From an uncultured Verrucomicrobiae bacterium (lineage in GTDB: Bacteria > Verrucomicrobiota > Verrucomicrobiia > Chthoniobacterales > UBA10450): a stretch of 64,000 nucleotides of DNA. The stretch lies in assembly GCA_963726745.1 (NCBI GenBank), contig CAVSDR010000004.1, forward strand, positions 192,001 to 256,000, in the 5' to 3' direction. This document shows positions 9,030 to 64,000 of the stretch, piece by piece (position 1 is the first letter of the stretch; every line of letters begins with the position of its first letter). The notes below the pieces were generated by a model that ran no database searches, was not told where the DNA came from, and worked only from the letters and a program-made list of their open reading frames with translations. Position numbers and translations under genes: made by a program.

Positions 9030-9755
9030 ATGGCAAGTTCCAAGACGAAAAAGGCTGCTCCAAAAGCCAAGAAGACCGCGCCGGCCAAGAAGCCCGCGGC
9101 CAAGCCGGCGGCTGCAACGAAAGCGCCTGCGACCAAGGCTTCCGCCGCCAAGAAGGCGCCGGCTAAAAAAGCCGCCGCGCCGAAAAGCTCCGGCCGCTCT
9201 CCGATCAACGGTCAAAAGGGCCACAAAGAGCTCACGACCACGCAGGCGATTCTCGGCACCAATCACAAGCAGCAAAAGCTCGACCCATTCATTCGCGGCC
9301 AACGCGACAAGCTCCTGCAGCTCCGCGATTCCATGGTCGACTCCATGGCGGGCGTGGCCCAGGACACGCTCCGCTCGCGCGCCGAGGGGAGCGAAGCTTC
9401 CGCCTTCGGGATGCACCAGGCCGATGCCGGCAGCGACGCCTACGATCGCGACTTTGCCCTCAGCCTGCTTTCGCAGGAACAGGACGCGCTTTACGAGATC
9501 GACCAGGCGCTCAAGCGCATTGAGCTCGGCACCTACGGCGTCTGCGAAATGTCCGGGAAAGCAATCTCGCACGCGCGTCTGGAGGCAATCCCCTTTGCCC
9601 GGTTCACCGTCGAGTGCCAGTCGCAACTCGAGAAGCAGAACAAGCAATCGCGCGTCCGTCAGTCCGTCACTTCCCTCTTCGGCTTGACCGATGACGACGG
9701 CGCGGAGACCGAGGAAGAGGACTCCAAGAGCAGCAGCGACGACAGCAAGGAATAG
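9030..9755 (+). CDS. dksA: DksA/TraR-family protein with Lys/Ala-rich N-terminus
   Basis: [21 protein letters not shown]...[15 protein letters not shown]. Confidence 0.82.
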
Positions 9756-48666: not shown

Positions 48667-48747
48667 GAATATTTTCCTCTGGGAACGCCCTAGGCGCTCA
48701 ATTCCCGCGCGCGCAGGGACTTTCTCCCGCCCTAACGAGTGCTGGAT

Positions 48748-50662
48748 CTACCCGGCAGCACTCGCGGCGGCGGCGATTTCCGCCAGCTCCTCCCAGCGCG
48801 CGTAAAGCCGCGCGACTTCCCGGCGCGCATTTTCCAGCTCCTCCTCGTGGCGCCGGAGATTCGCCGCTTCCCGCACGATAAATTCCGGGTCGGCGAAAAG
48901 GTTCTCCATCCGCGCGACCTCCCCCTCGGCCGCGAGGATGGCGGCTTCGATGCCTTCCAGCTCGCGCTCTTCCTTCCACTTCAACTTTCGCCCGCGCGCG
49001 GTCGGCGCGGCTTTCCCGGCCGGCTCCGCTTTCGCAGACACTCGGCGGCGCGGTTAATTCCTGCGCCCGCTTCTCGAGATAATAGTCGTAATTGCCCACC
49101 GCATAGCGCACCGCGCCGTCGTCCTCGAAGGCGAGGATCGCGGTGCAAACGCGGTTCAGGAAATAGCGGTCGTGACTCACGACCACGACGCTGCCCTTGA
49201 AAGCCGCGAGCGCTTCCTCGAGCAGGCGCAGCGTGCCCAGGTCGAGATCGTTCGTCGGCTCGTCGAGGATAAGCACGTTCCCGCCGCGCTTGAGAATTTT
49301 CGCCAGCAAGACGCGGCTGCGCTCGCCGCCGCTGAGTTGAAAGATCTTGGTGTTGATCCGGTCCTCGGTGAAGAGGAACCGCCGCAGGTAACCGCGCAGG
49401 GTGATGTTCTCCTCGCCGAGGCGCACGTATTCCATCCCCTCGCCCACCTCTTCCCAGACGGTTTTCTGGTCGTCCAGCAGCAGCCGGTTTTGGTCGACGT
49501 AATTGATCTCCGTCCGCGCCCCGATCTCGACCTCGCCACTGGTCGGCTCGAGTTGCCGGAGCATGATTTTCAACAGCGTCGACTTGCCGAGCCCGTTGCG
49601 CCCAACAATCCCCAGCCGCTCCCCCGCTTGCAGGTCTAACGAGACGTCGCGGAACAAGGTCCGGCCGCCCAGTTCCATCCCCACCCCGCGCACTTCGATC
49701 ACGCGATTGGCCAGCTTCGGCGCCGGCGGGATGATCAAGTCCACGTCGAGCTCCGCTTCCGGCGCTTCCTGCGCGGCCATCTCGAAATAGCGCTCCACCC
49801 GGTCGACCGATTTCGTCCGCCGCGCGCGCGGCGCTTTCCGCACCCAGGCGAGTTCGCGCTTGAGGAATTTCTGCCGCTTGTGCTCCTGCATCTCTTCCAC
49901 CGCGGCCCGCTCGGCGCGCGCCAGCAGGTAGTCGGTGTAGTTCCCGTCGTAGCTGTAAAATTTGCCGCGCGAAAGCTCGACTACGCGGGTGGCGATCCGG
50001 TCGAGAAAATAGCGGTCGTGCGTCACGAAAAGACAGGTGCCGCTGTAGCGCGCGAGAAAGTCCTCCAGCCACTCGATCGAGCCGGTGTCGAGATGGTTGG
50101 TCGGTTCGTCGAGGATGAGAAAATCCGGCCGCGCGAGCAACGCCCGGCAGAGCGCGACGCGCCGTTTCTCCCCGCCGGAAAGCTCGCTCACGCGGCGCTC
50201 GGCCGCGGGCGCGTGCAAATTAGTCAGCAAGCTCTGCGCGCGTTGCTCGAGATTCCAGCCGTCGAAATGCTCGATTTGCTCGAGCACCGTTCCGCTGCGC
50301 GCGCTCTCCGCCGGCAGCCGCTCGTATTCCGCGATCAAGTCGAGCACGTGCTGCGCACCCGCGAGAATATTAGCCTGCACATTGGCCGTCTCATCGAGCT
50401 CGAACATCTGCGGCATGTAGCCGGTAAGAAGGTCGCGGCGCTGATTGAGTTCGCCTGCGTCCGGCTTGGTGATCCCGGCCGCGATTTGCAGGAAGGTCGA
50501 CTTGCCCGAGCCATTCCGCCCGACCAAACCCACGCGCTCGCCTTCGCGAATCGTCAGGGTCGCATGGTCGAGCACCGCCTGGTTGCCAAACCGGACCACG
50601 AGTTCACTGGCACTGACCACGGCATTGGCGACGACGGCTTCGGACACCCCTTCCCATATCAC
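48748..50662 (-). CDS. ABC-F family ATPase (Uup-like), frameshift near 49040
   Basis: Two NBDs (GRNGSGKST/LSGGE/DEPTNHLD and GRNGLGKST/LSGGE/DEPTNDLD); C-terminal KLKWKEERELE..YARWEEL in the shifted frame. Confidence 0.9.
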
Positions 50663-50688: not shown

Positions 50689-53600
50689 CTACGGCAGGCG
50701 GTAGACTTCCACCAAGCCCACGCCGACGGCTCCGCCCTTCCCGCGCACGATCGCGGTGTAATTGCCGGGCGGCAGCGAAACGACCAGGGCCGATTCCCGC
50801 GGGTCTCCCGGAATAACGCCGGTTTGCGTGATCTCTGCCTCCTGGCTCTCCTGCCAGTCGTCGTTCAGCGTGACATTGCCGTTGCTGTCGTAGAACGATA
50901 GCGTCGTGTCCGGCAAGGGGTCGGCTACGCCCTGCCGCCCGAGCGACGGCCCAAGCGCGCGCAGCAAAACATTCCGCCGCCCACTGCCGCCGTTGACGAT
51001 GAACCCACCGATCATGACGTTGTCGCCGTTTTCCACGCGAGTGCGGCTGGAGACGTTGGCCAAGGTGGCCCGGGCGGACGGATCCAGATCGTAGACTTCG
51101 ACCAGGCCGACGCCGCTCGTGCCATCCTGCCCGCGCACGATCGCGGTGTAACCGCCCGGAGCGAGGGTCGCGACGATGGCCGCTTCTCGGTCAAAATGTG
51201 GCGGCAAAGTGCTCGCTTCGATCTCCGCCTTTTGATTTTGCTTCCAGTCGTCGTTGAAGATGACTGAGCCATCCGGCTGGTGCAGTTCGAGCGTGGGGTT
51301 TTCTAAAAAACCGCTGACGCCATGGGTTCCAAGCTCCGGACCCAACGCGCGAAGCAACACTTTCTTCGGCTCGGCCCCAGTAATGATGAAGCCCGCAATC
51401 ATCACATTGTCCCCCGTCTGCACGCGACCGCGGGTGGAAATATTGCGCAGCTCTGGAAACGGGGTGGGCGTTGGGGTGGGCGTTGCAGTCGGAGTGGGCG
51501 TAATCGTCGGGCTCGGCGTCGCAGTCGGCGTGGGCGTTGCAGTCGGTGTGGGCGTTGCAGTCGGAGTGGGCGTCGCGGTCGGCGTGGGCGTCGGCAACGG
51601 CGGGGCTGCGAGCGTCACCACGTTGCTCCAGGGCGAACTGAGCGAGGGACTGTCGGCTTTAATTCGGAATTCGTAGCTCTCGTTAGGCACGAGCGCATTA
51701 TCGGCAAAGGAGGTCGCGTTCTGCGCGATGCTGGACGAGACGTCTTCCCAGTATGCCGCCCCGATGATTCGCCGCTGGAGGGTGAAACCCGTCTCGAGAG
51801 ATTGCTCGCTCCAGTTAAGGGTCGCGCCGGCCCCATCCGCCGCGCGGGTGCCGGAGAGAGCGGGCGCGGGCATGGCGGCCGGGCCGGCCAGCGAGAAAAA
51901 TCCGATGGCCGCGCCGACCTGCGCCACGAGCTTGTCGGTAGTGGAATTGTAAGCGCTCACGGTGGTGTCGCTCGGCATTCCGTAGGCAATCACGCCAGTC
52001 TCGGTGAGGTAGATATTCTTTTGCCCGAAGGCGTAGCGGCCATCTTTGCTCGCGGCGTAGATAAAGTCCCGCAGATTGGTCACGCCCACGAGGTTGGGAT
52101 CGTAGGCTTCGCCGTTCCAGAAAATGCGGCTGCCATCTTCCGATGCCACAACGACGCGCGAACCGTAGTAGCCGTAGGGATTGATCCGAGCAGCGCCCAG
52201 TTCGCTGAAGCGATCGCCGGTCAGGTCGAGTTTATGCAATTGGGCGCCCGAAGAGTTGTCGTCCCCGTGATAATAATAACGACCGGTCGGATCGGTCGCG
52301 CCGCCGCCCTGGCGCTGGAAGCTATTGGCCAGTTTCGTTCCCGCGTTGGTGTCGAAAATCGAGACATTGATCCACTGATCATACTCCTCCACGATGACCC
52401 GCCCCGCGCCGCTGGCGGTCACGCGAAAGACATCGTTGCTCGACGAGCCGACCGCGCCCGCCGGACTGAATCCATAGGTCCGCGCGAGCGCGAAGGAGGC
52501 GCGGTCCACCGCGAGCAGGCTGCCGCCCTTCCAATTCGGGACGTAGATGCGGTTTTCCGGTAAATGCAGCGCCAGATCCGTCACGGAATTTCCCACCGCC
52601 AGGACCCGCGTCACCGCCTGGCTCGCGCTATCGATCTCCAACAAGTAGGCCACTGTCGGAGTAACCGAAGGGTCTTCACTCACGCCGTAGACCATGGCCG
52701 ACGATCGATCTGACTTCAGGATGGTGAGCTTTAGCGGATCGACCCGCAGTTGCACCGGAATGGAAAAGGGCCCGCCCGAGGAACCAGCGATTCGGACAGC
52801 GCCATTGTAAGTGCCCGGCGCCAGCTGCCCGGCGTTCAGGACCACGCGCAAGGTCGCCGGGGTGACCCCGCTGGTTTGCACGAACGTGATCCACGGTTCC
52901 GCCGCCGAAGCCTGCCACGCCTTCCCCGTGCTGCTCGAGTCCAGCGCGATCGGGATCGTGTGATTGGTGTGCCCGCGCACGGTCGCCGTGATGATTTGCG
53001 CCGGGCTGGCGGAAATATCGGACACCGTGAAATGGTAGACATCGCTGCGCGAAGTCTCATGCGCCGTCACCGTATCGATCCGCCAATAATAGGTCAGCCC
53101 AGCGGTCAACGGCGTGCCCAGGGTGAACTCCGGCGTGCGCGTTTCGCCGAGAAAACTGGGCGAACCCAACCCGGCCATCTGGACCGCACTCTCGGAAGTT
53201 CCGAGATAGATTTGATATTTCTCGGCCCCGGGCAGGGCGGACCAGCGCAGGCTCGCCGGCGGGAGCACGATGGAGCCATTGGCCGGTGAGAGTGTCCGCT
53301 TGAGAATCACGTCGCCGACTGCAGTGGTCAGGTTCACCGTGCCCAGGACGTGCTGCGTGGGATGGTAATAAACCAGCCGCGCATAGTCCGCGGTGATCGC
53401 CTGGACGCTGCTGGCGACCGGCAGATCGTAGACTTTGCTCCCACTCTGCACTTCGTAGATCGCCGTCTTGGTGGCTGCGATTTCACCGCCATCGCTGATC
53501 GAGTAGACCGGCGAAGGGAAACCGGATTGCGTTTGCGTAACCGCGTGCGCCAGCACCGCGAGCTGCTTTACGAAAGCCAGCCGGCCATCATTGCTGATCA

Positions 53601-54573
53601 GCACCGGCGTATCCAATGGGTCGCGCGAAAGCGTGGTCGGATACGTCGAAGTGGTCGTCTCCGCCGGCGTGAGCAGGCCGTTGGCTGCCACATTATAACG
53701 CGCGATGTAGGAACCCGCCCAGCCCGCCGTCCAGCCGTATTGCACCCAGCCGACCAGCGTCCCGCGATCCGGCGTGAGCGCAAAATCGCCGCAGCCGTAA
53801 TTATTGCTGCCACCGATGTAAACCGTCTGCAGGACCGTGCGGGTCGCCCGATCAAACACGCGCAAAGCCGGCGCCCACTCGCCGTCGGTATAGTAAAGAA
53901 TGTTCCCGCTCCCGACCTTGAGGTTCGCGCTCGTGTCGCTCTGACCCCACTCCGTGTAAGCGGGCAAGGCAATCGTCTCCTTCACCGCCCACGTCTCCAG
54001 GTTGATCACCGTCAGGGCGCGGTCCACGCTGTTGATCACGAACAACTCCGAGCCATCGTTCGAGACCGCCAGATCGGTCGGCTTGTTCCCGACGGTCACG
54101 CTCCCGAGGAGTTGCGCGTTAATCGGATCGTAAATCAACACCGCGCCGCGCAGCAGCCCGTTCTGGTGCACCGCGTAAACCCGCGAGCGAAACGGGTCAG
54201 CCAGCAATTTCACCACATTGAGCTGCGACACCGCCGCGCGCACAAAGAACGTCCGCGTATCGCCCCCCTGGGTCGCTGTGATCGTCGCCGTGTAGGAAGC
54301 ATTGATCAGCCCACTGGTGGCAAAACTGAGCCGCACACTCCTGCCCGCCGCATCCACCGAAGGCGTCACCCAGGCTGCATCCGACTGCACCCCGAGCGCG
54401 CCGTAATCGAAAGTGCCGGCGGCGTTGATCGGCACCCGCACGTCTGCGTGATTGGCCGGCGGCGCCACCACCACATCCACCTGCGAAACCGCGAAAGTGA
54501 AAGGCTCGCCCATGGCCCCGGCGCAGATGAGGAAAGAAGCCGAGACCAGAGAGAAGAAAGATGCGGCTTTCAT
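50689..54573 (-). CDS. Large secreted protein: beta-propeller regions, BACON/Ig-like and FN3-like modules, PT linker, duplicated NISTR domain
   Basis: Signal peptide MKAASFF..AMG; VGNKPTDLAVS YVTN-like; WQASAAEPWITF; YEFRIKA..SPWSN; (PTAT)n; NISTRG../NVSSRT..GVGLVEVY twice. Confidence 0.8.
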   Translation of the reverse strand: MKAASFFSLVSASFLICAGAMGEPFTFAVSQVDVVVAPPANHADVRVPINAAGTFDYGALGVQSDAAWVTPSVDAAGRSVRLSFATSGLINASYTATITATQGGDTRTFFVRAAVSQLNVVKLLADPFRSRVYAVHQNGLLRGAVLIYDPINAQLLGSVTVGNKPTDLAVSNDGSELFVINSVDRALTVINLETWAVKETIALPAYTEWGQSDTSANLKVGSGNILYYTDGEWAPALRVFDRATRTVLQTVYIGGSNNYGCGDFALTPDRGTLVGWVQYGWTAGWAGSYIARYNVAANGLLTPAETTTSTYPTTLSRDPLDTPVLISNDGRLAFVKQLAVLAHAVTQTQSGFPSPVYSISDGGEIAATKTAIYEVQSGSKVYDLPVASSVQAITADYARLVYYHPTQHVLGTVNLTTAVGDVILKRTLSPANGSIVLPPASLRWSALPGAEKYQIYLGTSESAVQMAGLGSPSFLGETRTPEFTLGTPLTAGLTYYWRIDTVTAHETSRSDVYHFTVSDISASPAQIITATVRGHTNHTIPIALDSSSTGKAWQASAAEPWITFVQTSGVTPATLRVVLNAGQLAPGTYNGAVRIAGSSGGPFSIPVQLRVDPLKLTILKSDRSSAMVYGVSEDPSVTPTVAYLLEIDSASQAVTRVLAVGNSVTDLALHLPENRIYVPNWKGGSLLAVDRASFALARTYGFSPAGAVGSSSNDVFRVTASGAGRVIVEEYDQWINVSIFDTNAGTKLANSFQRQGGGATDPTGRYYYHGDDNSSGAQLHKLDLTGDRFSELGAARINPYGYYGSRVVVASEDGSRIFWNGEAYDPNLVGVTNLRDFIYAASKDGRYAFGQKNIYLTETGVIAYGMPSDTTVSAYNSTTDKLVAQVGAAIGFFSLAGPAAMPAPALSGTRAADGAGATLNWSEQSLETGFTLQRRIIGAAYWEDVSSSIAQNATSFADNALVPNESYEFRIKADSPSLSSPWSNVVTLAAPPLPTPTPTATPTPTATPTPTATPTPTATPSPTITPTPTATPTPTPTPFPELRNISTRGRVQTGDNVMIAGFIITGAEPKKVLLRALGPELGTHGVSGFLENPTLELHQPDGSVIFNDDWKQNQKAEIEASTLPPHFDREAAIVATLAPGGYTAIVRGQDGTSGVGLVEVYDLDPSARATLANVSSRTRVENGDNVMIGGFIVNGGSGRRNVLLRALGPSLGRQGVADPLPDTTLSFYDSNGNVTLNDDWQESQEAEITQTGVIPGDPRESALVVSLPPGNYTAIVRGKGGAVGVGLVEVYRLP
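51460..51600 (-). repeat. Pro-Thr linker repeat (PTPTAT)n
   Basis: About 18-nt tandem units such as GGCGTTGCAGTCGGAGTG on the + strand. Confidence 0.85.
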
Positions 54574-54676
54574 GCGAGGGATGCGCCGAGTGCAGCGCTT
54601 TCTTCTGCAAGAAGCAAGAATTTGTCTCCACCTCCGGAACGCGTGGTGGGCCACAACGGCTTCGAACACCCGCAAG

Positions 54677-55714
54677 TCACGGACTGGTGACGTAGCGCTC
54701 ATAGGCCGCCGCGTCGTAAACCAGGTCAAGCGTCGGCACGAGCTGGAATTCGCGGCCGCCGAATTTGCGTTTGAAGACGCTGAAGTCCCACCAGGGATGC
54801 TCCGGGTTGTCCGCTGGTGAAATGCCCCAGAAGTCATACCAGGCGCAGCCGCGCGCCTTCGCTGCGCGCATGATTTCCCAATGGAGAAGATACGGCGCCA
54901 TCAGCTGCCGCTGCTCGCCTAACGAGCCGCCGTAAAAGTAAGTCGCCTTCTCGCCAAAGAAAATGACCACGGCCGCGGCCAGGCGTTTCCCTTCGTGCTC
55001 GGCGAAGAAAAAGCTGCCTGTTTTTGCCGTCGCCAGCGTCTCGTGCAGGGCCTCGAAGTAGCTATCCGGTTTTTCGCTCATCGGCTGGCGCGCGGCCGTC
55101 TCGCGGTAGATCGCGAGGAAATCAGCCAGCGCTTTGGCGGACGAATCTTCAGCCACGGTTACGCCGTGTCGCTGGGCCAGGCGGATGTTGTAGCGGCCTT
55201 TCGGCTTCATTTGCACGAGGATTTCCACTTCGGGCGGCCGCAGATCCACACAGAGGGTCTCGCGCGGCTCGAGAATCCCGTCGCTCAGCGGTGCGACCGG
55301 TTGCCATCCGCGGACGAAGGCTGGCAAAGTCGCCCAACGCGGCTCGATTCGCAGATGGCTCACGGGAAGCGGCGCGCGCGCGCGCTCCGCTGCGACTGCG
55401 TCGAGCACTGCGGCGAAGATTTGTTCCGCGGCGCCTTCATCAGGCGGCAGGATGGGCCCATCCGGGATGTAGAGGAAACACTCCCCTGGCACGCAGGAGA
55501 ACTTCATTACCAAAGCGCCGCCTAAAATCTTGCCCCCGGACCGCAGAACCGCGCCAAAATGCTCGTAACCTGCGTCGCAGCGAAACTCGGCCCACCACGA
55601 AGTCTGCATGAAGCCGCCATCGGCGCGCGCTTCTACGAACCGATCCCAGGCAGCCCAGCGATTCGGCGGCGCCACCGCGACCGGAGCTTCGGCAAGAGCG
55701 GACGAGTGGTTCAT
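54677..55714 (-). CDS. FemAB/FemX-family aminoacyl-tRNA-dependent transferase (double GNAT)
   Basis: FMQTSWWAEFR, DGP, LRIEP, MKPKGRYNIRLAQRHGV, YFYGGS..MAPYLLHWEIM..YDFWGI..FKRKFGG. Confidence 0.88.
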   Translation of the reverse strand: MNHSSALAEAPVAVAPPNRWAAWDRFVEARADGGFMQTSWWAEFRCDAGYEHFGAVLRSGGKILGGALVMKFSCVPGECFLYIPDGPILPPDEGAAEQIFAAVLDAVAAERARAPLPVSHLRIEPRWATLPAFVRGWQPVAPLSDGILEPRETLCVDLRPPEVEILVQMKPKGRYNIRLAQRHGVTVAEDSSAKALADFLAIYRETAARQPMSEKPDSYFEALHETLATAKTGSFFFAEHEGKRLAAAVVIFFGEKATYFYGGSLGEQRQLMAPYLLHWEIMRAAKARGCAWYDFWGISPADNPEHPWWDFSVFKRKFGGREFQLVPTLDLVYDAAAYERYVTSP

Positions 55715-55722
55715 GCGCGCGC

Positions 55723-56711
55723 TTAAGTGTCCGGCACGTAGGCCACGCTGACCTCGAACTTTACCGTGACCTGTTTTACCTGCCGCCGGACGGGCACGAC
55801 CTTGTGCAGCGCCGGGTTGAAGTAATCCTTCAGCATCGGAGGCCGCGGCCCGTCGACGTAATAGGCAGCCGCTTCTTCGACCACGGTATCGGCGATGACC
55901 TCGAGCTCGTCGCGCGTGGCCGCATGCTGGACCACGCAGGGAGCGTGGGAGTAGCCGAGCGCGCGCAAGGCGTAGGCGCGATGGCTGCCATTGTTCAAGA
56001 TGAGCCGGTCGCCGGAGCGAATGGCGTTGAGGAAATTTGAGCCAAAGCCGACCGCCGCGCCGACCACGCCCACGAGCGTGCCGGCGGTGCCCTGGCCGCG
56101 GAGGTGGCGCGGCTCGAGGCGCAGGGTGCGGAGAAAACGAAGGTCGTTAGACGGCGAGATGAAGATGAAAGTGTCGCGGCCGATGCGCTCCCAGGTGACC
56201 GGCGGAGACGGATGATCGTAGGGCAGGCAGAAGCGGAAAATTTCCTCCGCAGTGGGCGTCGGGCCGAGGCGTTCGAGGAGCCGGCGGACGAAGGCGAGAT
56301 CGATGCGCTTTTGATAGACCACCAGCCGGTCGAGCTCGACAAACGCGACCTCGGTCGGCACGGAGTTGAACCCGCGCTGGACCAATGGATCGCTCAAGAA
56401 CTGGAGCAAGAGCGGCTCGTAGGTGGCATCGACCGGGACCGGTTTCCGCCCGGGATGATCGGCCCAGTGGGCCTCGGATTTTTCGAGCTCCGCGACGCGC
56501 TCACGCGCAGCCTTCCACTCGGCGATGAGGACCGCTTCCTCCTCGGGCTCGACCGCCTCGTGCTGGACGAAATGGAGGAAGCTCTTGAGCGACGGACGGC
56601 CCGTGAGGTAGATGGTGTCATCGGCCGAGGCCGTCGGGGGGCGCTGGGCGATTGGTTTGGTTTGCTGGTGAATGGCGGTGGCTCCAGGGGGTTGAAGTTG
56701 CTGTCTACCAC
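55723..56711 (-). CDS. Uncharacterised enzyme with ParB/sulfiredoxin-like motif (about 329 aa after fixing a -1 indel in the C6 run near 56636-56641)
   Basis: Frame stays open upstream of the tracked TTG (..DDTIYLTGRPSLKSFLHFV..EWKAARERV..); GTG at 56711 overlaps the upstream stop; LILNNGSHRAYAL resembles ParB/Srx (L/I)xxG-x-HR. Confidence 0.7.
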
Positions 56712-59008
56712 CACGACCAAAACTCGACGCGAAAGGTGCGCGAGATCCGGCGGGTGATGAGATCGATCAAGCGCCGCTGGCCGCATTCGATCTTGGCCAT
56801 GCCGCTCATGCCGGGCTTGAGCAGGCCTGCGCGATTGTCGATCTCGGTGGTCACGAGAATGGTGTTGGCGTTCTTTCCGCTCTCCGGCACGAGCCCGCCG
56901 GCGGGGCCGCTTTTGCCGCCGGAGGCGAGCGCCGTCCCGCCTACGCCCTGCACGGTGGTGGCAATTTCAGTAACTGTGCCGGGGAAGACGCGGTCGGGAT
57001 AGGCGCGCACTTTCAGCGAAACCGTCTGGCCCTTGCGGACATCGGCGATTTCCTTCTCGGGGATGGCCATCTCCGCGGTGATGACCTTGAAGTCGAAGAC
57101 CTTCGCGATCAGGTCGCCTTTGTGGACGAGCTGGTGGCGCATCTCGCTGAGCTGGCGCGAGGGGGTGGTCACGATGCCGGCGGCGGGGCTGAGGACCTTG
57201 GTGAGGCTCAGCTGACTCTGAAGATAGGCGCGCTGGGTCTCGAGGCTGCGGACCATCGCGCGGAGCGCCTCGATTTCCTCCGGGCGGCTTCCGGCCTGGA
57301 GGAGCTGGAGTTTCTTCGAGGCTTCCGCGAGATCACTTTCGCTGCTCGCGACCAGGCGCGCGCTTTCCTCGTAATCGAGCGCGGAAAGAAGCTGCTGCTC
57401 GTTCAACTGCCGGTAACGCTCGAGGCGCGACTGGAGGAATTTCAACTGCTCCTGGTGACGCGCGACGGTGGTTTGCGCGAGCTGGATTTCCTCAAGGCGT
57501 GAGCCGGCTTCGAGGAGCCGCAGGCGGGCTTTGTTCTCGGCCACCTGCGCTTCCACTTTTTGCAGCTCCGCCTGGAGGTCGCGCCCGAAAAGCGCGGCGA
57601 TCGGCTGGCCGGCTTCCACGCGCTCGCCTTCGTCGACGTAGACCACCTCGATGATGCCCTCGATCTCCGCCCGCACGTCGGCGTTGTGGATCGGAAAGGC
57701 GCTCACCGGCCCGGCGACGCGGAGCTCCGCCTTGACTACAAACAGCAAGATGACGACGGCGGCGGCGAGGAGGATTTTCGGGAAACGACTCTTCAGGAAA
57801 CGGGAACGCCGGCGCGGCTCCGAGCGGGCGCGCTTCCCGTGGCCAAAGAGCCGGCGGAATTTTCCCTGGAAACGCACGCCGACGAGCCCGGCGAAAAGAA
57901 AGAAAGCCAGCCGCTGTCCCTGAACCACGAGGTGCTCGCCGATGAGCAGGGCCACGTAAGCGGTGAAGAGAAACGAGAAGGTCCAGGCGATGATCCCATA
58001 GATGAGAAAAACGCGGCGCTCCTGGCGCGCCACTTCCGGGAGCCCGGCGCGCCAGCCACCGAGGGTGCGCAGGAAATCGCCCAGGTAACGGAAGGCGCGC
58101 TTGCGCAAATTTACGATCCCGAGGTAATCGCTGAGCAGGTAATAGCCATCGAGCTTGATCAACGGATTGAAGTTGAAAAACGTCTTGATCCCTGAGGTGG
58201 CCATGACGATGAGCGCGATCCGGCTGATCCAGGTATCAGAGTCGGTCACGCGCCAGCAGAGCGTGGCCAGGGCCCAGATGAAGAGCTCGAGATACGGACC
58301 GGCAAACGACACCCAAAGCCGCTTCCCCTTGGAAAAAAACCACGCGTCGCTCACGTTGCAGAAGAAGGCCGGCTGGAAATAAATCAGCATGAAACCCATC
58401 TCGCGCACTTCGCCGCCGAAGTGTTTGCAGGCGAGCCCGTGGCCAAACTCGTGCGCCGTGGTCACGGCAAAGGCGACCGCAATCAGAAGCGGCAAGGTCG
58501 AGAGCCGATAGAGCTGCGAAGCATCGCCCACGATCTGGTCCCAGTGGAACGCGGAGACGGCTGCGGCGGCGAGAATGGTAGCCGCGGAAAAGACCAGGAA
58601 ACGCGCGGTGAAGGCAAATCGGACCCGCGGATAGAGCCGGTTAAGCAGCCCGTCGGGGTCGAAGAGGCGGAAGCGCAGCGTCATCAGGCCGCCGTCGAGC
58701 CGTTTCGGTTTCGCCGGCGCGCGGTGACCTTTGGCTCCGTTCTCGAGCAGGCTGTTTTTAGCCAGCGTTTTGACAAACGCATTCAGCTCTTCCGGCGGGA
58801 GCGTGGCGCCAAATTTATTCTCCACCCGGTGATTGACCACGTGCAGCGGCGTTTCGCCGTCGAGCTGCTCGGCGATGAAGCGTTCCGCCGCGCGCAGGCG
58901 GTAGAATTGCCGGCTTAGCGGATCCTTGATCACGAGCACGGTGCCCTCGGCCGTGCTTTGCAGACGGCGGTCGAGATCGCCGCGCAATTTCGGCAGGGTC
59001 GCGATCAT
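56705..59008 (-). CDS. PqqD/RRE-like domain + M50 (site-2) Zn peptidase + HlyD membrane-fusion protein fusion
   Basis: N-terminal VIKDPLSRQFYRL..FIAEQLDG..EELNAFV; HEFGH and NFNPLIKLDGY; VDEGERVEAGQPI, coiled coil, SPAAGIV, LKPGMSG. Confidence 0.88.
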   Translation of the reverse strand: MIATLPKLRGDLDRRLQSTAEGTVLVIKDPLSRQFYRLRAAERFIAEQLDGETPLHVVNHRVENKFGATLPPEELNAFVKTLAKNSLLENGAKGHRAPAKPKRLDGGLMTLRFRLFDPDGLLNRLYPRVRFAFTARFLVFSAATILAAAAVSAFHWDQIVGDASQLYRLSTLPLLIAVAFAVTTAHEFGHGLACKHFGGEVREMGFMLIYFQPAFFCNVSDAWFFSKGKRLWVSFAGPYLELFIWALATLCWRVTDSDTWISRIALIVMATSGIKTFFNFNPLIKLDGYYLLSDYLGIVNLRKRAFRYLGDFLRTLGGWRAGLPEVARQERRVFLIYGIIAWTFSFLFTAYVALLIGEHLVVQGQRLAFFLFAGLVGVRFQGKFRRLFGHGKRARSEPRRRSRFLKSRFPKILLAAAVVILLFVVKAELRVAGPVSAFPIHNADVRAEIEGIIEVVYVDEGERVEAGQPIAALFGRDLQAELQKVEAQVAENKARLRLLEAGSRLEEIQLAQTTVARHQEQLKFLQSRLERYRQLNEQQLLSALDYEESARLVASSESDLAEASKKLQLLQAGSRPEEIEALRAMVRSLETQRAYLQSQLSLTKVLSPAAGIVTTPSRQLSEMRHQLVHKGDLIAKVFDFKVITAEMAIPEKEIADVRKGQTVSLKVRAYPDRVFPGTVTEIATTVQGVGGTALASGGKSGPAGGLVPESGKNANTILVTTEIDNRAGLLKPGMSGMAKIECGQRRLIDLITRRISRTFRVEFWSWW

Positions 59009-59158
59009 GGGAGCTGGGAGCGCATCGAACAAGGAGCCGAACTTTTCCGCGTGGAGGAAGGCCGCGAGCCGGGGCCGGCAGCCTTCCCGTCACGTGGAGG
59101 TGACCCCACCGGCCACGGGAGAAACTCCCGCTGCGGGTGGTCCATCTAGCAGCGGGCG

Positions 59159-59326
59159 CTAGTGCTTGGAGCCTTTGCTGCCCTTGCTTCCTTTGGACCC
59201 CTTGCTGCCCTTGGATCCTTTGCTGCCTTTGGACCCTTTGCTGCCGGATCCGCCGCCGCCGCAGCCGAGCCGGCCGGGGGCGATGCGTTGCTCTAGTTTC
59301 TCCAGTTCAAGATTTAGATGATTCAT
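59159..59326 (-). CDS. 55-aa putative precursor peptide MNHLNLELEKLEQRIAPGRLGCGGGGS(GSK)9H (not in ORF track)
   Basis: Hand translation; GAAAGGA Shine-Dalgarno 5 nt before the ATG; synonymous codon variation across the repeats; first gene of the operon. Confidence 0.85.
   Translation of the reverse strand: MNHLNLELEKLEQRIAPGRLGCGGGGSGSKGSKGSKGSKGSKGSKGSKGSKGSKH
59165..59245 (-). repeat. Nine degenerate 9-nt repeats encoding Gly-Ser-Lys
   Basis: GGN-(AGC/TCC)-AAR x9. Confidence 0.9.
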
Positions 59327-59542: not shown

Positions 59543-60659
59543 GTGTTTGAACTGCTGCAAACCGATCCCGCGTCGAAAGCCCGCCGCGGCCGCCTAACGA
59601 CCGCGCATGGTGTGATCCAGACGCCGGCGTTCATGCCCGTGGGCACGCAGGGGTCGGTCAAGGCCGTAAGTCCGCGCGAACTCCGGGAGTTGCAGACGCA
59701 GATCCTCCTCGGCAACACCTATCACCTTTTCGTCCGGCCGGGCCTGGAGATTATCCGGCACTTTGGCGGGCTCCATCGTTTCATGAATTGGGACGGGCCC
59801 ATCCTGACCGACAGCGGCGGTTACCAGATCTTCTCGTTAGCCAAGATCCGCCGGATCACCGAGGAAGGCGCGCGCTTCCAAAATCATCTCGACGGCACGC
59901 CCACCTTCATTTCGCCGGAGATCGCGATGGAAATCCAGGCCTCGTTAGGCAGCGACATCGCGATGGTGCTGGATGAATGCCCGCCCTGGCCGTGCGAACG
60001 CGACTACGCCGCGCGGAGTCTGGAGATGACGGCGCGCTGGGCGCGGCGCAGCCAAGAGGCGCCACATGCGGAAGGCCAGTTGATCTTCGGCATCGTGCAA
60101 GGGGCGACGTTTCGCGGATCTGCGCCGGGAGGCGGCGGAGGCGACGGTCGCGCTCGGGTTCGATGGCTATGCCATCGGCGGGGTGAGCGTGGGCGAACCG
60201 GAGCCGGAGATGATGCTCGCAGTGGAAAACAGCGAGCCGTTTCTGCCGAAGGATAAGCCGCGCTATTGCATGGGCCTGGGGACGCCGCCGCAGATCGTCG
60301 AGCTGATCGCGCGCGGCGTGGATATGTTCGATTGCGTGCTGCCGACCCGCCTGGCGCGGCACGGGACGGTCTTCACCGCGGGCGGCACACTGAACTTGAA
60401 GAACGCGGAGTTCGCGCTCGACCGGGGGCCGATCGAAGACGGCTGCAGTTGCCCGGCGTGCGCGGAATTTTCGCGCGGCTACATCCGGCATCTGCTGAAA
60501 GCGGAGGAGATCCTCGGGCTGCGGCTGGTCACGTTGCACAACCTGCATTTTTATCTCGGCCTCACCACGCGTGCGCGCGTCGCGATCGAGGATGGAACCT
60601 TCGCGGAGTTCCGGCGGGAGTTTGTCGGCAACTACGCGGTCCGCGCGGCCGAGTCCTGA
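59543..60659 (+). CDS. tgt: Queuine tRNA-ribosyltransferase (split by a +1 indel near 60110)
   Basis: TPAFMPVGT, LTDSGGYQ, FGIVQG | DGYAIGG, DMFDCVLPTR, CSCPAC..HNL. Confidence 0.94.
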
Positions 60660-63600
60660 GATCGACGGCGAAACCGGCGGCGCTGCGAATAGGCGAGCCC
60701 GAGGAAAGCGAGTGCGCCGGCCGCATAGGTCCCCGGTTCCGGCACCGCGGAGATCGGCGTGAGCTCGAAGAAGCCGCCGCCTAAATCAAATTGCGCCGCG
60801 CCCGGTCCGTAGCCATTGAAGGCGAAGCTCGCGAGGTTCCCGAGCTGGCTGGAATTAAAGATCAGCCGATCGGTGCCGCTATTGCCCACCGTGGCCAGGA
60901 GGCCGGTCCAGTTCAGGATCGTGACGAGATTCCCGCTCGGGACGAAGCTGGCAAAGCTGAGCACCCCGACCGCGCCCGTCCCGAAATCCAGCTTGGAACC
61001 GGCGGCCGTCAGGGTGAGCGCGCCCATGCCCGCACTGTTGGCTGCGCCTTCGTTGAACGCGCCTTTGGCCAACGTCCCGCCGGCGAGCGTGACCGAGGCC
61101 GCGTTGTTGATCTGGTTGCTCGCCCCGAGCAAGAGCGTGCCGCCGGAGTTGACCGTGATCGCGGTGGTCGAAGCGAGGGCGCTGCCCGAGGTGGTGCCGA
61201 GGAGCAATGTGCCCGCCTCGACCGTGGTCGTGCCGGTGAAATTGTTTAAGCCGGTGAGAGTGAGGACGCCGGTCCCGCTTTTCGCAAGGCTGCCCGTGCC
61301 GGTGAGGACGCCGGAGAAAGTCGTGCTCGTGCCGTCGCCCCCGGCGGTGAGCTTGGTCCCGCTACTGCCGACCACACCGAGGCTGATTGTGCCCGCGCCG
61401 GCGACGGAGCCGACGGTTTCGCTGTTGTCGTTCAAATCGAAGGTCGCGCCGCTGGCCACGACCACGGCCGAGTTATCGTGAATCCGTTCCGCGGCGGCGA
61501 GCTGCAGGGTGCCGCCGTTGATGGAGGTCGCGCCCGTCCGCGTGCTGCTGCCGGCCAGGATGAGCATGCCCGCGCCGATCTTGGTTAACGAACGCGCGCC
61601 GCCGCTTTCGGAGAGCGTGCCGTTGAGGATGAAGCTGTCGTCCAGGAGCTGAATGCCGATGGTGGAGTTCGAAGCGAGGACGATGTTGCCATTCCAGATG
61701 TTGTCGCCGGCGGCGACATCGATCGCGCCCGCGCCAGCCACGCCGCTGCCGTTGAGGGTGATCGTCTCGTTCCCCACGGTCAGGCCGGCAGGATCGATGA
61801 ACTGCAAGGCCGCGCCATTCGCGACCACGGTTTCGTTCCCCACCCCGGTGGCGCCGAGGGCCGCGGAATTTTGCACGCGAAGCACTCCGGTGTTGATCGA
61901 AGTGAGGCCGGTGAAAGTGTTGGCTGCGGTCAGGGTCAGGCTGCCGTTGCCGTTCTTGCTCACCCCGCCGCTGCCACTGATGACGCCGTTTGCCTGGATG
62001 TCGCCCGCGCCGGTGAAAGCGAGCGCGCGCGTCCCGAGCGAAATGGCGCCCACGCTCAGCAGTCCGCTATCGGAGCCGATCGTGCTGTCGCCCGCGAGGG
62101 TGATGCCGCCGGTCCACGAGCCGCCCGCGGTCGCGCGCAACGCGCCTGCGCCCGTGACCCCATTGCCCTCGAGGGTCAGGCTTTCGCCGTTGATCGAGAT
62201 CGCGCCGCCGAGCCGCAGCTCCGCACCCGCCATCACCGTCGTTCCGCTCGCGGTGCCGCCGAAGGCGCTCGCGTTTTGCGCCAGCAAGACGCCGGCATTG
62301 ACGCTCGTTAGGCCGGCGAAATTGTTCGCGCCGGATAGCGTGAGCGTGCCGCTGCCAGTCTTGGTGAAGCCGCCCGGGCCGCTCAGGATGCCCGAGAAAG
62401 TCGTGTCCAGGTTATTCGTCCCGGCCGAAAGCAGGGCGCTGCCTAACGACACTGCGCCCGCACCGCTGAGCGAGCCGACGGATTGGTTGAAGCTGTCCAA
62501 ATCGAGCGTCGCACCACTGGCCACGCTCAGGTCCGTCGCGCCCGCCAAAGCGCTGGCTAAACCAAGGCGCAGCGTGCCGGCGTTCACATTGGTCGCGCCG
62601 GTGAAAGTGTTCGCACCGGAAAGAGTCAGCACGCCGGTGCCGGTCTTAACGAAGGCACCGCTGCCGGTGAGGACACCGGAATAGGCGGTCGAAGAATTAT
62701 TCGCGCCCGCCGTTAGCGTCCCGGCTCCGAGTTGAACCGCGCCGCTGCCCGCGAGCGAGCCGATGCTGTCGCTGTATCCATTCAGCGCAAAGGTGGTGCC
62801 GCTCGCCAGGGTGAGGGCCGAGAGACTGGAGACGCCGTTCGCGCCCGCAAGCTGAAGCGTGCCGGCGCTGACTGTTGTCGCGCCGCTGTAGCTGCCGGCG
62901 GCGCTGAGCGTCAGCATGCCGGTCCCGGTTTTCGTCCAGCCGAACAAGCCCGAGATCGCGCCCAGGGTGGCGTTCGCCGAGGAGGTATCGAAGGTCGCAG
63001 CGCCGCTCAGCGTGACCGCGCCCAGCGTGAGGCCGGCGCCGTTGCTGCCGGTAAAGCTGAGCGTGCTCGCGCCGATCGCCAGCGTGCCGAGAGCATGAGT
63101 CACGGCCGGCGTGGTGCCGGTGAGGCGGCTGGCGTCGATCGTGGAATTCGCCGTGACCGTGAGATCGTTTGCGAAGTTGGTGCTGGCATCGTTGCGCAAG
63201 CGCAAGCTGCCGCCGTTCAGAGTCACACGGCCGCGATTGATCGCATCTCCGAGGGACTGCGCATCGCGCAGCTCGACGCTGCCGGCATTGATCTGGAGGA
63301 CGCCGTCAAAGTTTGCGTTGCCGCTCGGCACCACGAGCGCCCCGGCACCTTTCTTAAAGAGCGTGCTCGCGACGTTGCCGGTGACGAGAACATTGGCCGC
63401 GTTGCCGAGGGTGAGGGTTTGGCCGGAATTGATATCGAGCGTGCCGGCGAGATCCGCGGCCACGCTGAAGACCTTGGTCGCATCGGCCACGAACCCGGCG
63501 GTCACGTTGAGCGTGCCGCCGTTGAAAGTGACGTCGTTGCCGACATTCCCGAGATTGTTTTCCGCGCTGATCTGGAGCACGCCGCCGTTGAGGAAATTTG

Positions 63601-64000
63601 TGCCCGTGTAGATGTTCGCCCCGGAAAGAATGAGGAGCCCGCTGTCGGCTTTAGTCAGCGAGACGAGGCCGTCATCGGCGTCGCCGTAGAGGCCATTCGC
63701 GCCGGCGTTGTTGATGATGCTGGAAGAAATCGTGAGCGAGTCCGAGCCGTTGACCGCGATCGAGAGCGCGCCATTTGCGATCCCGCCCGCGGTCAACCGC
63801 CCCGCGCCGGAGATGGTGCTCGCAAGCGGGCTGCTCTTGATCAAGCCGCCGCTGGAGAGGTTGAGGGTGCGGGTGGCATCGCTGCCGAGATCGAGCGTGG
63901 CGATATCGTTCAAGACCAGCGCCTGGTTAGTCGTGGTGCCCGCGCCGGTCAAAGTGAACCCCGAAGCCTGGGCCAGGCTGGTCAGCTGCACCGTGGTCGA
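60632..64000 (-). CDS. Autotransporter-associated beta-strand repeat protein with PEP-CTERM tail (5' end outside the window)
   Basis: Many KTGxGxLTLSGANTFTGxTxVNAGTL repeats; ends VPEPGTYAAGALAFLGLAYSQRRRFRRR. Confidence 0.9.
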   Translation of the reverse strand, partial: STTVQLTSLAQASGFTLTGAGTTTNQALVLNDIATLDLGSDATRTLNLSSGGLIKSSPLASTISGAGRLTAGGIANGALSIAVNGSDSLTISSSIINNAGANGLYGDADDGLVSLTKADSGLLILSGANIYTGTNFLNGGVLQISAENNLGNVGNDVTFNGGTLNVTAGFVADATKVFSVAADLAGTLDINSGQTLTLGNAANVLVTGNVASTLFKKGAGALVVPSGNANFDGVLQINAGSVELRDAQSLGDAINRGRVTLNGGSLRLRNDASTNFANDLTVTANSTIDASRLTGTTPAVTHALGTLAIGASTLSFTGSNGAGLTLGAVTLSGAATFDTSSANATLGAISGLFGWTKTGTGMLTLSAAGSYSGATTVSAGTLQLAGANGVSSLSALTLASGTTFALNGYSDSIGSLAGSGAVQLGAGTLTAGANNSSTAYSGVLTGSGAFVKTGTGVLTLSGANTFTGATNVNAGTLRLGLASALAGATDLSVASGATLDLDSFNQSVGSLSGAGAVSLGSALLSAGTNNLDTTFSGILSGPGGFTKTGSGTLTLSGANNFAGLTSVNAGVLLAQNASAFGGTASGTTVMAGAELRLGGAISINGESLTLEGNGVTGAGALRATAGGSWTGGITLAGDSTIGSDSGLLSVGAISLGTRALAFTGAGDIQANGVISGSGGVSKNGNGSLTLTAANTFTGLTSINTGVLRVQNSAALGATGVGNETVVANGAALQFIDPAGLTVGNETITLNGSGVAGAGAIDVAAGDNIWNGNIVLASNSTIGIQLLDDSFILNGTLSESGGARSLTKIGAGMLILAGSSTRTGATSINGGTLQLAAAERIHDNSAVVVASGATFDLNDNSETVGSVAGAGTISLGVVGSSGTKLTAGGDGTSTTFSGVLTGTGSLAKSGTGVLTLTGLNNFTGTTTVEAGTLLLGTTSGSALASTTAITVNSGGTLLLGASNQINNAASVTLAGGTLAKGAFNEGAANSAGMGALTLTAAGSKLDFGTGAVGVLSFASFVPSGNLVTILNWTGLLATVGNSGTDRLIFNSSQLGNLASFAFNGYGPGAAQFDLGGGFFELTPISAVPEPGTYAAGALAFLGLAYSQRRRFRRRSQDSAARTA

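Follow-up and report, generated by a model that had tools for sequence, protein, structure and literature searches.

In the epipeptide system of Bacillus subtilis (YydFGHIJ/EpeXEPAB), the gene for an intramembrane M50 metalloprotease, YydH/EpeP, lies beside that for a small precursor peptide. EpeP is thought both to cleave and to export, and EpeP and TglG/TmoG are known M50 leader proteases (PMC10885120). Here we describe a locus with a similar pairing of small precursor and M50 protease, found at positions 54677..59326 of a 64,000-nucleotide stretch of DNA from an uncultured Verrucomicrobiae bacterium (contig CAVSDR010000004.1 of assembly GCA_963726745.1); this whole stretch is called the window below. 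Its four genes encode a 55-residue precursor, a protein in which a PqqD-like RiPP recognition element (RRE), an M50 protease and a HlyD adaptor are fused, a protein of the ParB/sulfiredoxin (Srx) fold, and a FemAB-family transferase. Together they probably form a leader-dependent maturation and export operon of the kind that makes peptides that are synthesized ribosomally and then modified after translation (RiPPs), in which the leader would be captured, the core tailored in the cytoplasm and the peptide cleaved and exported. All four genes have the same orientation on the minus strand, and tgt is divergent from them on the plus strand from 59543. The original prediction, made from the sequence alone, had described four such closely spaced genes at this place, and the open reading frames (ORFs) and their translations agree with it.

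The precursor gene (59162..59326, minus strand; stop codon at 59162..59164) encodes the 55-residue peptide MNHLNLELEKLEQRIAPGRLGCGGGGSGSKGSKGSKGSKGSKGSKGSKGSKGSKH and has a ribosome-binding site, AAGGA, 6 nucleotides upstream. The leader comprises residues 1-17, LNLELEKLEQRIAP (59276..59326), and the core comprises residues 18-55, which include nine perfect GSK units, (GSK)9. At its nine Ser positions the repeat uses AGC and TCC in alternation, and the DNA match at a period of nine nucleotides is just 65% according to Tandem Repeats Finder. The synonymous Ser codons and this degree of match indicate that (GSK)9 is kept by selection on the peptide, and not by recent slippage.

Conservation was analysed by script in a set of related loci that comprised the best 80 of at least 399 metagenome stretches, the window and four further loci (L004, L005, L006 and L007). 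A scan of genome contigs with a single protein had yielded only four loci, hence an alignment was used as query and metagenome contigs were included. The metagenome loci are mostly short contigs, and the scripted gene calling is heuristic, so that antisense ORFs occur in the gene maps. Of the 38 loci in which the fusion N-terminus and at least 300 bp of upstream sequence are present, all 38 have a small ORF with the leader upstream of the fusion, on the same strand, a count that used a pattern wider than LE.R[IVLM][AST]P and one that comes with no background count. The narrower pattern itself had one off-target match in the analysed loci, an antisense ORF in L023. The 3.4-Mb genome to which the window belongs contains exactly one such leader, at this locus. 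In an alignment of 34 precursors the leader was near-invariant across phyla, and M1, L11, E12, R14 and A16 were invariant. The window, with 63% GC, contains many spurious ORFs, and the 55-residue frame could thus have been an accident among four unrelated neighbouring genes. This explanation is refuted by the recurrence of the leader in every suitable locus and across phyla and by the alignment of the precursors; its single occurrence in the genome at exactly this spot and the synonymous Ser codons inside the repeat also speak against it.

Downstream of the leader, the cores are hypervariable, of low complexity and rich in G, S, T, K and H, with no alignable sequence in common. Repeats of the types GSK, GSKSH, HKSSKS, SSK, GS, GTKD, GSKDH and HSTKG were found; other cores consist of G/T-rich runs, or of Gly/hydrophobic stretches that end in Cys, His, Asp or Glu. 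Ser/Thr is present in all 42 cores of the LEQRIAP type (minimum 11%, median 33%) and, besides Gly, these are the residues that occur in all of them; Lys is absent from nine. A near-invariant leader followed by hypervariable repeat cores is the usual pattern of RiPPs. Of the general traits of such systems, the locus has the conserved leader with a variable core, a leader-recognition domain and a leader protease; a tailoring enzyme that changes the core would be the fourth. Two precursor genes each are present in L039, L046, L063 and L073, the second of which is often poor in Lys and rich in Cys. A leader variant with RIATW in place of RIAPG occurs in L046, L047, L072 and L073, where the FemAB gene precedes the precursor gene.

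The fusion gene (56705..59008, minus strand) encodes 767 residues from its likely start, the ATG at 59008. This start is considered likely because the alignment of homologues begins there and the database entry for the window's protein has 767 residues; the first possible start is a TTG at 59032, which gives 775 residues (56705..59032). The PqqD-like RRE occupies the N-terminus (58718..59005, minus strand; approximately residues 10-105 of the 775-residue reading). Its AlphaFold2 model, with a mean predicted local distance difference test (pLDDT) score of 81, contains three strands (residues 21-27, 30-36 and 43-46) and three helices (48-56, 63-74 and 80-92). The top Foldseek rows were TfuB1 and TbiB1 (both at probability 1.00, with target template-modelling scores of 0.72-0.78) and PqqD (5sxy); over these proteins the probabilities were 0.97-1.00, the target scores 0.66-0.78 and the root-mean-square deviation (rmsd) 2.5-3.5 Å. 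When the N-terminal half of a fusion profile of 29 homologues was compared with PDB sequences, the sole match was TfuB1 (6jx3_B; E 0.0084, residues 9-95). Several fusion homologues carry a precomputed match to Pfam PF05402 (PqqD), and on the window's fusion protein the Pfam PqqD match was below significance.

Docking of the leader to the RRE gave a weak signal, with a score of 0.35 compared to 0.01 for the best control, contacts that agreed to at least 96% between runs and a partner pLDDT of at least 49. In the calibration, 116 of 157 solved complexes came up to the mark applied here, as did 2 of 215 mismatches; at scores of 0.60 or lower, it was reached by just 18 of the 157 complexes and by both mismatches. 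Moreover, lasso B1-leader complexes have been solved, so that the pass may reflect likeness to, or memory of, those structures.

The membrane domain of the fusion protein is of the M50/site-2-protease type (57833..58675, minus strand; approximately residues 120-400), with HExxH at residues 194-198 and NPLIKLDG with D295. The catalytic motifs are intact: H194, E195, H198, D295 and G296 are invariant in 29 fusion sequences. Foldseek matched the domain to S2P (3b4r) and SpoIVFB (8vjl/8vjm). The Pfam Peptidase_M50 score was 19.3 bits on the window's protein against a cut-off of 27.2, and precomputed matches to this family exist on many homologues. The HlyD-type periplasmic adaptor domain (56708..57790, minus strand; approximately residues 415-775) comes after a linker that is strongly basic and a further hydrophobic helix, and it was recognized by Pfam HlyD_D23 (1.1e-18, 67.8 bits, cut-off 30) and HlyD_3 (1.6e-14, 55 bits, cut-off 22.2), and likewise by the NCBIfam RND_mfp and HlyD models. 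By the positive-inside rule, the basic linker would put the RRE on the cytoplasmic side of the membrane and the HlyD part on the periplasmic side. The three domains named in the original prediction are thus borne out by Foldseek, invariant motifs and Pfam.

Site-2 proteases act in signalling, and SpoIVFB is among the structural matches. The M50 domain could therefore be imagined in a module of regulated intramembrane proteolysis that frees the peptide as a signal or regulator, and not as a secreted product. We consider this very unlikely, as the precursor has no transmembrane segment and its hypervariable cores would be unexpected of a signalling substrate. In addition, the PqqD-like RRE and the fused HlyD domain point to leader recognition and envelope-spanning export.

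The third gene encodes the ParB/Srx-fold protein (55723..56673, minus strand), which has 316 residues from a proposed ATT start. The original prediction had placed its start at 56711, which is out of frame, since the resulting 989 nucleotides are not a multiple of three. The frame is open to 56766 and contains no ATG, GTG or TTG above 56409, and approximately 88 residues upstream of this position are conserved in all homologues. Because these conserved residues lie upstream of 56409, we propose that the gene likely starts with the ATT at 56673, with GGAG located 8 nucleotides upstream. The database version of the protein (P0005) is a truncation of 228 residues. The NNGSHR motif (55978..55995, minus strand; residues 227-232) is found at a strand-to-helix junction of the ParB/Srx domain. 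All of 23 close homologues have N228, G229, H231 and R232, and among 47 distant homologues the conservation of these residues is at least 90%.

ParB, sulfiredoxin, SerK, SbnI and their relatives form one superfamily. The AlphaFold2 model of the window's protein has a pLDDT of 72 and is poor over residues 153-211. In an exhaustive VIA search of 48,161 chains, all 10 chains with a Z of at least 2 were of the ParB/Srx type. They include sulfiredoxin (1yzs, Z 6.3, rmsd 2.7 Å, 93 residues aligned; 6ky4, Z 6.2, 2.4 Å, 86 aligned), Atu1540 (Z 6.2, 3.9 Å, 107 aligned), the free serine kinase SerK (5x0b, Z 5.5, 3.7 Å, 103 aligned), PadC (Z 5.0, 3.8 Å, 89 aligned) and SbnI (Z 4.7, 3.8 Å, 101 aligned). 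The Foldseek list for the same model consists of ParB, PadC, Noc, sulfiredoxin, free serine kinase, KorB and SbnI, with E-values of 0.03-0.7. As Z alone is modest, we assign the fold because the match list is uniform and NGxHR is conserved at the strand-helix junction; both lists agree with the ParB/Srx-type protein originally proposed. NCBIfam SerK matched weakly over the NNGSHR stretch (12.9 bits, cut-off 380). The sole PDB-sequence match of the ParB-like profile, an arginine kinase (E 2), was rejected as noise. A protein atlas placed the protein near unnamed clusters only, and the distant ParB-CE and PFIN (0.76-0.77) are mere leads.

Homologues of the ParB-like protein number at least 1618 at 90% clustering, and those with a name are all called hypothetical and come from metagenome-assembled genomes (MAGs) of Chthoniobacterales, Acidobacteria and Terriglobia. 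The profile gathered 1312 clusters at 50% identity, 334 of them at an E-value of 1e-30 or better. One homologue of 730 residues (P0194) carries a GT25 glycosyltransferase and a methyltransferase domain in fusion with its ParB-like domain (residues 421-726), an arrangement that would fit a role in tailoring. Three further long forms (P0145, P0198 and P0146) have N-terminal extensions without a Pfam match.

The order of the fusion gene and the ParB-like gene is strongly conserved. Of the 78 loci whose upstream sequence extends over at least 300 bp, 72 have the fusion gene upstream of the ParB-like gene, in the same orientation and with its end at a distance of -150 to +400 bp. Among the exceptions, L016 and L052 have a gene of the fusion cluster directly upstream after all, according to the gene map; L049 and L061 have an M50 match further upstream, L027 has a different gene order and L050 has no fusion gene. 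Taken with the constant presence of the leader, this synteny strongly supports the grouping of leader peptide, fusion and NGSHR protein that the original prediction had offered for comparison with other genomes. The conservation of the ParB-like protein throughout, besides the exporter, makes it the candidate tailoring enzyme. In L016, tandem ParB-like copies of 342 and 328 residues lie behind the fusion gene.

All four genes are also present in a Vicinamibacterales MAG, in another phylum, where the FemAB protein is 58% identical. Reference genomes with the ParB-like gene are sparse: 3 of 61 relatives (the window's genome included), 2 of 301 genomes of the class to which the Vicinamibacterales MAG belongs and 5 of 401 genomes of the order that includes a Methylotenera MAG. 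The metagenome scan, in comparison, confirmed at least 399 stretches, from soil metagenomes. The system thus appears to be common in soil metagenomes and rare in reference genomes, which may explain why it has been overlooked.

Distant ParB-like homologues revealed a second architecture. In the Methylotenera MAG (L008, 6944-13185), the homologue is approximately 35% identical and adjoins an ORF of 61 codons with a double-glycine (GG) leader and a repeat core rich in Lys, Ser, Asn and Gly. Further genes of this locus encode an outer-membrane efflux protein (OEP), an ABC transporter with a C39 peptidase, and HlyD. The ParB-like gene was found in four further genomes of the same order, Burkholderiales (L098, L099, L100 and L101). 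A GG-leader peptide with GGSK or SK repeats is encoded directly upstream in L099 (2787-5424), L100 (7557-8919) and L101 (107-4917), so that such a peptide, with a core of GGSK, SK or NSNK repeats, stands beside the ParB-like gene in four of the four loci of this order with upstream sequence. Each of the four GG-type cores read contains Ser. Downstream, L099, L101 and L098 have a HlyD gene, which is followed by C39-ABC in L101. The tie of the system to the M50/HlyD route that had been drawn originally therefore does not extend to these homologues, which pair with GG-leader peptides and, in two loci, with C39-ABC. The presence of the ParB-like protein with G/S/K cores under two unrelated solutions for leader and export indicates that it tracks the core and not the leader. 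This pairing in two architectures is the strongest argument that the core peptide would be the substrate or partner of the ParB-like protein.

The same loci bear on the view that the peptide, once freed of its leader, is secreted without modification, and that the ParB/Srx-fold protein is a gate, chaperone or energiser of the exporter driven by nucleoside triphosphates (NTPs), or a regulator of it. ParB/Srx proteins bind NTPs and the operon has no export ATPase, the RRE is on the exporter and not on the ParB-like protein, and the latter matches no known peptide-modifying family (Pfam, NCBIfam, PDB-sequence profile), all of which would fit such a role. However, L008 and L101 have a C39-ABC exporter with an ATPase of its own and yet keep the ParB-like gene beside the peptide. 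Pfam and VIA detected no helix-turn-helix or other DNA-binding domain in the ParB-like protein, and the glycosyltransferase and methyltransferase to which it is fused in P0194 are typical company of tailoring enzymes. We therefore regard export without modification as unlikely.

The fourth gene encodes a FemX-like transferase of the FemAB family (54677..55714, minus strand; 345 residues) and starts 8 nucleotides past the ParB-like stop. Its match to Pfam FemAB (1.1e-37, 130.3 bits, cut-off 24) and to FemX structures in the PDB (1.5e-16 to 1.4e-14; S. aureus 6snr at 1.5e-16, W. viridescens 3gkr at 3.7e-15) confirmed the family named in the original prediction. Its membership in the cluster, also claimed there, had to be revised. 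FemAB is present in 21 of the 57 loci with at least 1200 bp past the ParB-like gene. In 18 of these it lies 12-870 bp downstream of this gene on the same strand, and in the other 3 it precedes the precursor gene. In two same-genus relatives, G019 and G022, the three-gene core is followed by an unrelated membrane protein, with no FemAB. FemAB is an accessory module of the GSK subtype and not part of the conserved core. The core is of the GSK type and has at least four Lys in all 11 FemAB-containing loci whose precursor is known; in loci without FemAB, 7 of 19 peptides have at least four Lys, mostly of the HKSSKS or SSK type.

FemAB-like proteins are self-immunity factors in lysostaphin producers, and the FemAB protein might leave the peptide untouched and modify the producer's envelope, for instance for self-immunity, or be an unrelated neighbour. 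Its best solved relatives act on peptidoglycan precursors, it is missing from 36 of the 57 loci, Lys-rich ones among them, and the genome has a second, distant FemAB paralogue. On the other hand, the gene is tightly linked to the ParB-like gene on the same strand, both here and in the 18 loci above, and it was found only with GSK-type Lys cores. Furthermore, the cluster-linked FemAB homologues are 49-64% identical across phyla, and no close homologue was detected in 60 relatives, in which the best identity was 22-31% (weak matches only, also in G008 and G030). The latter result rules out a housekeeping cell-wall gene and indicates that the gene travels with the cluster. An activity away from the peptide thus seems quite unlikely.

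In nine loci (L014 at 9099-9755, L017, L018, L021, L033, L042, L052, L064 and L075), an oxygenase-like companion of 205-241 residues with invariant H87, D89 and H161 is encoded before or after FemAB. It lies near clusters of 2-oxoglutarate (2OG)-Fe(II) oxygenases in the protein atlas (0.94-0.97), which is a lead only, and it had no Pfam, NCBIfam or PDB-sequence match. The companion was not found in the window's genome, which is 94.7% complete.

Based on these results we propose the following pathway. The 55-residue precursor would be produced in the cytoplasm, where the PqqD-like RRE, the N-terminal part of the fusion protein, would capture its leader, LNLELEKLEQRIAP. The core would then be tailored while tethered. 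In every subtype the ParB/Srx-fold protein would serve as tailoring enzyme, with NTP-dependent phosphoryl or nucleotidyl transfer to Ser/Thr hydroxyls as its putative chemistry; this chemistry is favoured because Ser/Thr is present in all cores and two of the structural relatives are serine kinases. In the GSK subtype, the FemX-like enzyme may in addition move aminoacyl groups from aminoacyl-tRNA to the Lys epsilon-amines, as suggested by the chemistry of the FemX family and by the association with Lys. The M50 intramembrane metalloprotease would remove the leader near the RIAP/G boundary, where conservation ends, and the fused HlyD adaptor would hand the product to an outer-membrane channel encoded elsewhere.

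Several points weigh against this pathway. Leader binding, the cleavage site, export, both chemistries and the role of the product are inferred from genes and models. The RRE is located on the protease and not on the putative tailoring enzymes, and the operon encodes no energy source for export; the original remark that the cluster lacks an ABC ATPase and TolC is true of the four genes. The fold matches of the ParB-like protein are modest (Z of at most 6.3, Foldseek E of at least 0.03) and maybe reflect only a common arrangement, and the protein has no usable match in Pfam, ParBc included, or in NCBIfam. ParB/Srx proteins include CTP switches, regulators and nucleases, so that a kinase is one option. 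As for FemAB, its absence from the fetched stretch in the majority of loci includes the Lys-rich L013, L016 and L037, which indicates that Lys cores do not need FemAB, and the FemAB-containing loci may be close kin, so that their uniform GSK cores are an association and not independent observations. Finally, local assembly errors or decay may be present, given the ParB-like gene without a canonical start and the frameshifted tgt gene.

With respect to the product, its composition leads us to speculate that it is hydrophilic and metal- or surface-binding, and not a classical membrane-active bacteriocin. A more daring version of the proposal, which we regard as rather unlikely, is that the system makes a widespread and so far undescribed class of exported 'decorated repeat' peptides. 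Here a ParB/Srx Ser/Thr kinase or nucleotidyltransferase would act on Gly/Ser/Lys/His cores, a FemX-like enzyme would aminoacylate each Lys from aminoacyl-tRNA in the GSK subtype, and the RRE-M50-HlyD protein would be a self-contained machine for reading, cleaving and exporting, with a 2OG-oxygenase-like protein added in some loci. The resulting peptides would be zwitterionic, comb-like, and metal- or mineral-binding or surface-conditioning in soil, and not antibiotics. Diatom silaffins, which contain phospho-Ser and modified Lys, are chemically reminiscent of such comb-like peptides.

The surroundings of the operon were also inspected. Two genes downstream, at 48698..50662, an ABC-F type ATPase with two ABC_tran domains and ABC_tran_Xtn is encoded, without a membrane domain. 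The region at 50689..54837 (minus strand), downstream of FemAB, encodes a large secreted protein. It starts near MKAASFF in the manner of a signal peptide, has an fn3 match and a long linker of Thr and Pro, and ends in two domains that resemble each other; other loci do not have it beside the system. On the other side, tgt (59543..60659, plus strand) consists of two ORFs that cover positions 2-181 and 206-355 of the Pfam TGT profile. The middle piece (profile positions 182-205) is missing from both ORFs and lies in another frame, which implies at least one and probably two frameshifts, either assembly indels or those of a decaying gene. A protein of 1119 residues with seven PATR (autotransporter-associated) repeats is encoded at 60632..63991 (minus strand); its C-terminus, VPEPG...RRRFRRR, is PEP-CTERM-like. 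Subtilase (Peptidase_S8) genes occur near the system in eight loci, and the copy in L089 (1557-3335, minus strand) ends in a long SxWGTQ tandem repeat. A scan for sigma-70 promoters gave 0 sites. Terminator-like sites (11 compared to 5.7 expected) were mostly intragenic and were not used, and an attenuator between the precursor and fusion genes was rejected, as the RNA fold there was no better than that of shuffles (z -1.25).

If the proposed pathway is true, the locus would represent a RiPP-like class defined by the ParB/Srx fold, for which the literature searched gave no account of a part in peptide tailoring. The ParB-like family of at least 1312 clusters, which has no Pfam or NCBIfam model and is annotated as hypothetical, would likewise gain a function. 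If the FemX-like enzyme acts on Lys of the peptide, tRNA-dependent aminoacylation of side chains would extend from cell-wall precursors to ribosomal peptides, and this would be the first FemABX enzyme acting on a ribosomal peptide. Because the compact fusion protein joins an envelope-spanning adaptor to the parts that recognize and cleave a leader, it is of interest to those who wish to understand, and possibly re-use, peptide export. In addition, the near-invariant 17-residue leader with its freely varying cores is a natural library, in which the substrate rules of the enzymes are directly testable.

Comparison with described systems places each component near a known relative. The protease differs from that of the epipeptide system in its N-terminal RRE and C-terminal HlyD domain, its score against the YydH/LiaK model is 3.9e-10 (39.8 bits, cut-off 225), and leader and core are unrelated to those of the epipeptide. 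The operon is also without an ABC transporter, and Pfam and NCBIfam detected no radical-SAM domain or epimerase in the four proteins or their neighbours. The best curated model for the fusion protein was the daptide metalloprotease (NF041824, daptide_HExxH), which matched residues 27-385, that is the RRE-like and M50 parts, at 7.7e-66. The score of 222.7 bits is below the cut-off of 300, however, and no other daptide enzymes are encoded among the four genes or their neighbours. To our knowledge, a HlyD fusion, a ParB-like enzyme and repeat cores are not daptide features. The RRE has the same fold of three strands and three helices as lasso B1 proteins (TfuB1/TbiB1) and PqqD, but here it is fused to the leader protease and exporter, not to or beside a modifying enzyme.

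The precursor resembles those of the Hxs (His-Xaa-Ser) system, which are likewise short, low-complexity and tandemly repeated, and HxsA4 matched weakly over the repeats (1.2e-06, 29.3 bits). This score is below the cut-off of 55, the leader is a different one, and the HxsB/HxsC radical-SAM genes are missing. The double-glycine route of C39-ABC, HlyD and TolC is used by the Burkholderiales-order cousins (L008, and with C39-ABC and HlyD also L101), whereas the window has the LEQRIAP leader and the RRE-M50-HlyD fusion in place of the GG leader and C39-ABC. NCBIfam contains no model for the precursors, the ParB-like family or the oxygenase-like companion. In the accessible full-text literature (including PMC8277102, PMC10885120 and PMC8939145), a body of text outside which most subscription journals lie, no description of the gene set was found, in line with the original statement that no described RiPP class has this combination.

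The fold is common to the ParB-like protein, sulfiredoxin, SerK and SbnI, and so is a motif of the (D/N)GxHR type where the strand meets the helix. Of these proteins, SerK and SbnI phosphorylate the hydroxyl of serine; the substrate here would be a peptide. The ParB-like protein has no significant sequence similarity to these proteins, and it has an extra N-terminal domain and the insertion at residues 153-211. The FemAB protein is a clear member of the FemX/FemABX family, for which the Lys epsilon-amine is the classical acceptor. Unlike its relatives, it has its gene in an operon for peptide export, in a bacterium of the Gram-negative type, and it scored below the cut-offs of the equivalog models (FemX 78.5 bits against 500, PEP-CTERM 57.2 against 260). 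The parts of the locus, namely a PqqD-like RRE, an M50 leader protease, a HlyD adaptor, a FemABX transferase and a ParB/Srx-fold protein, are therefore of known kinds, and the set that they form is a candidate new RiPP class.

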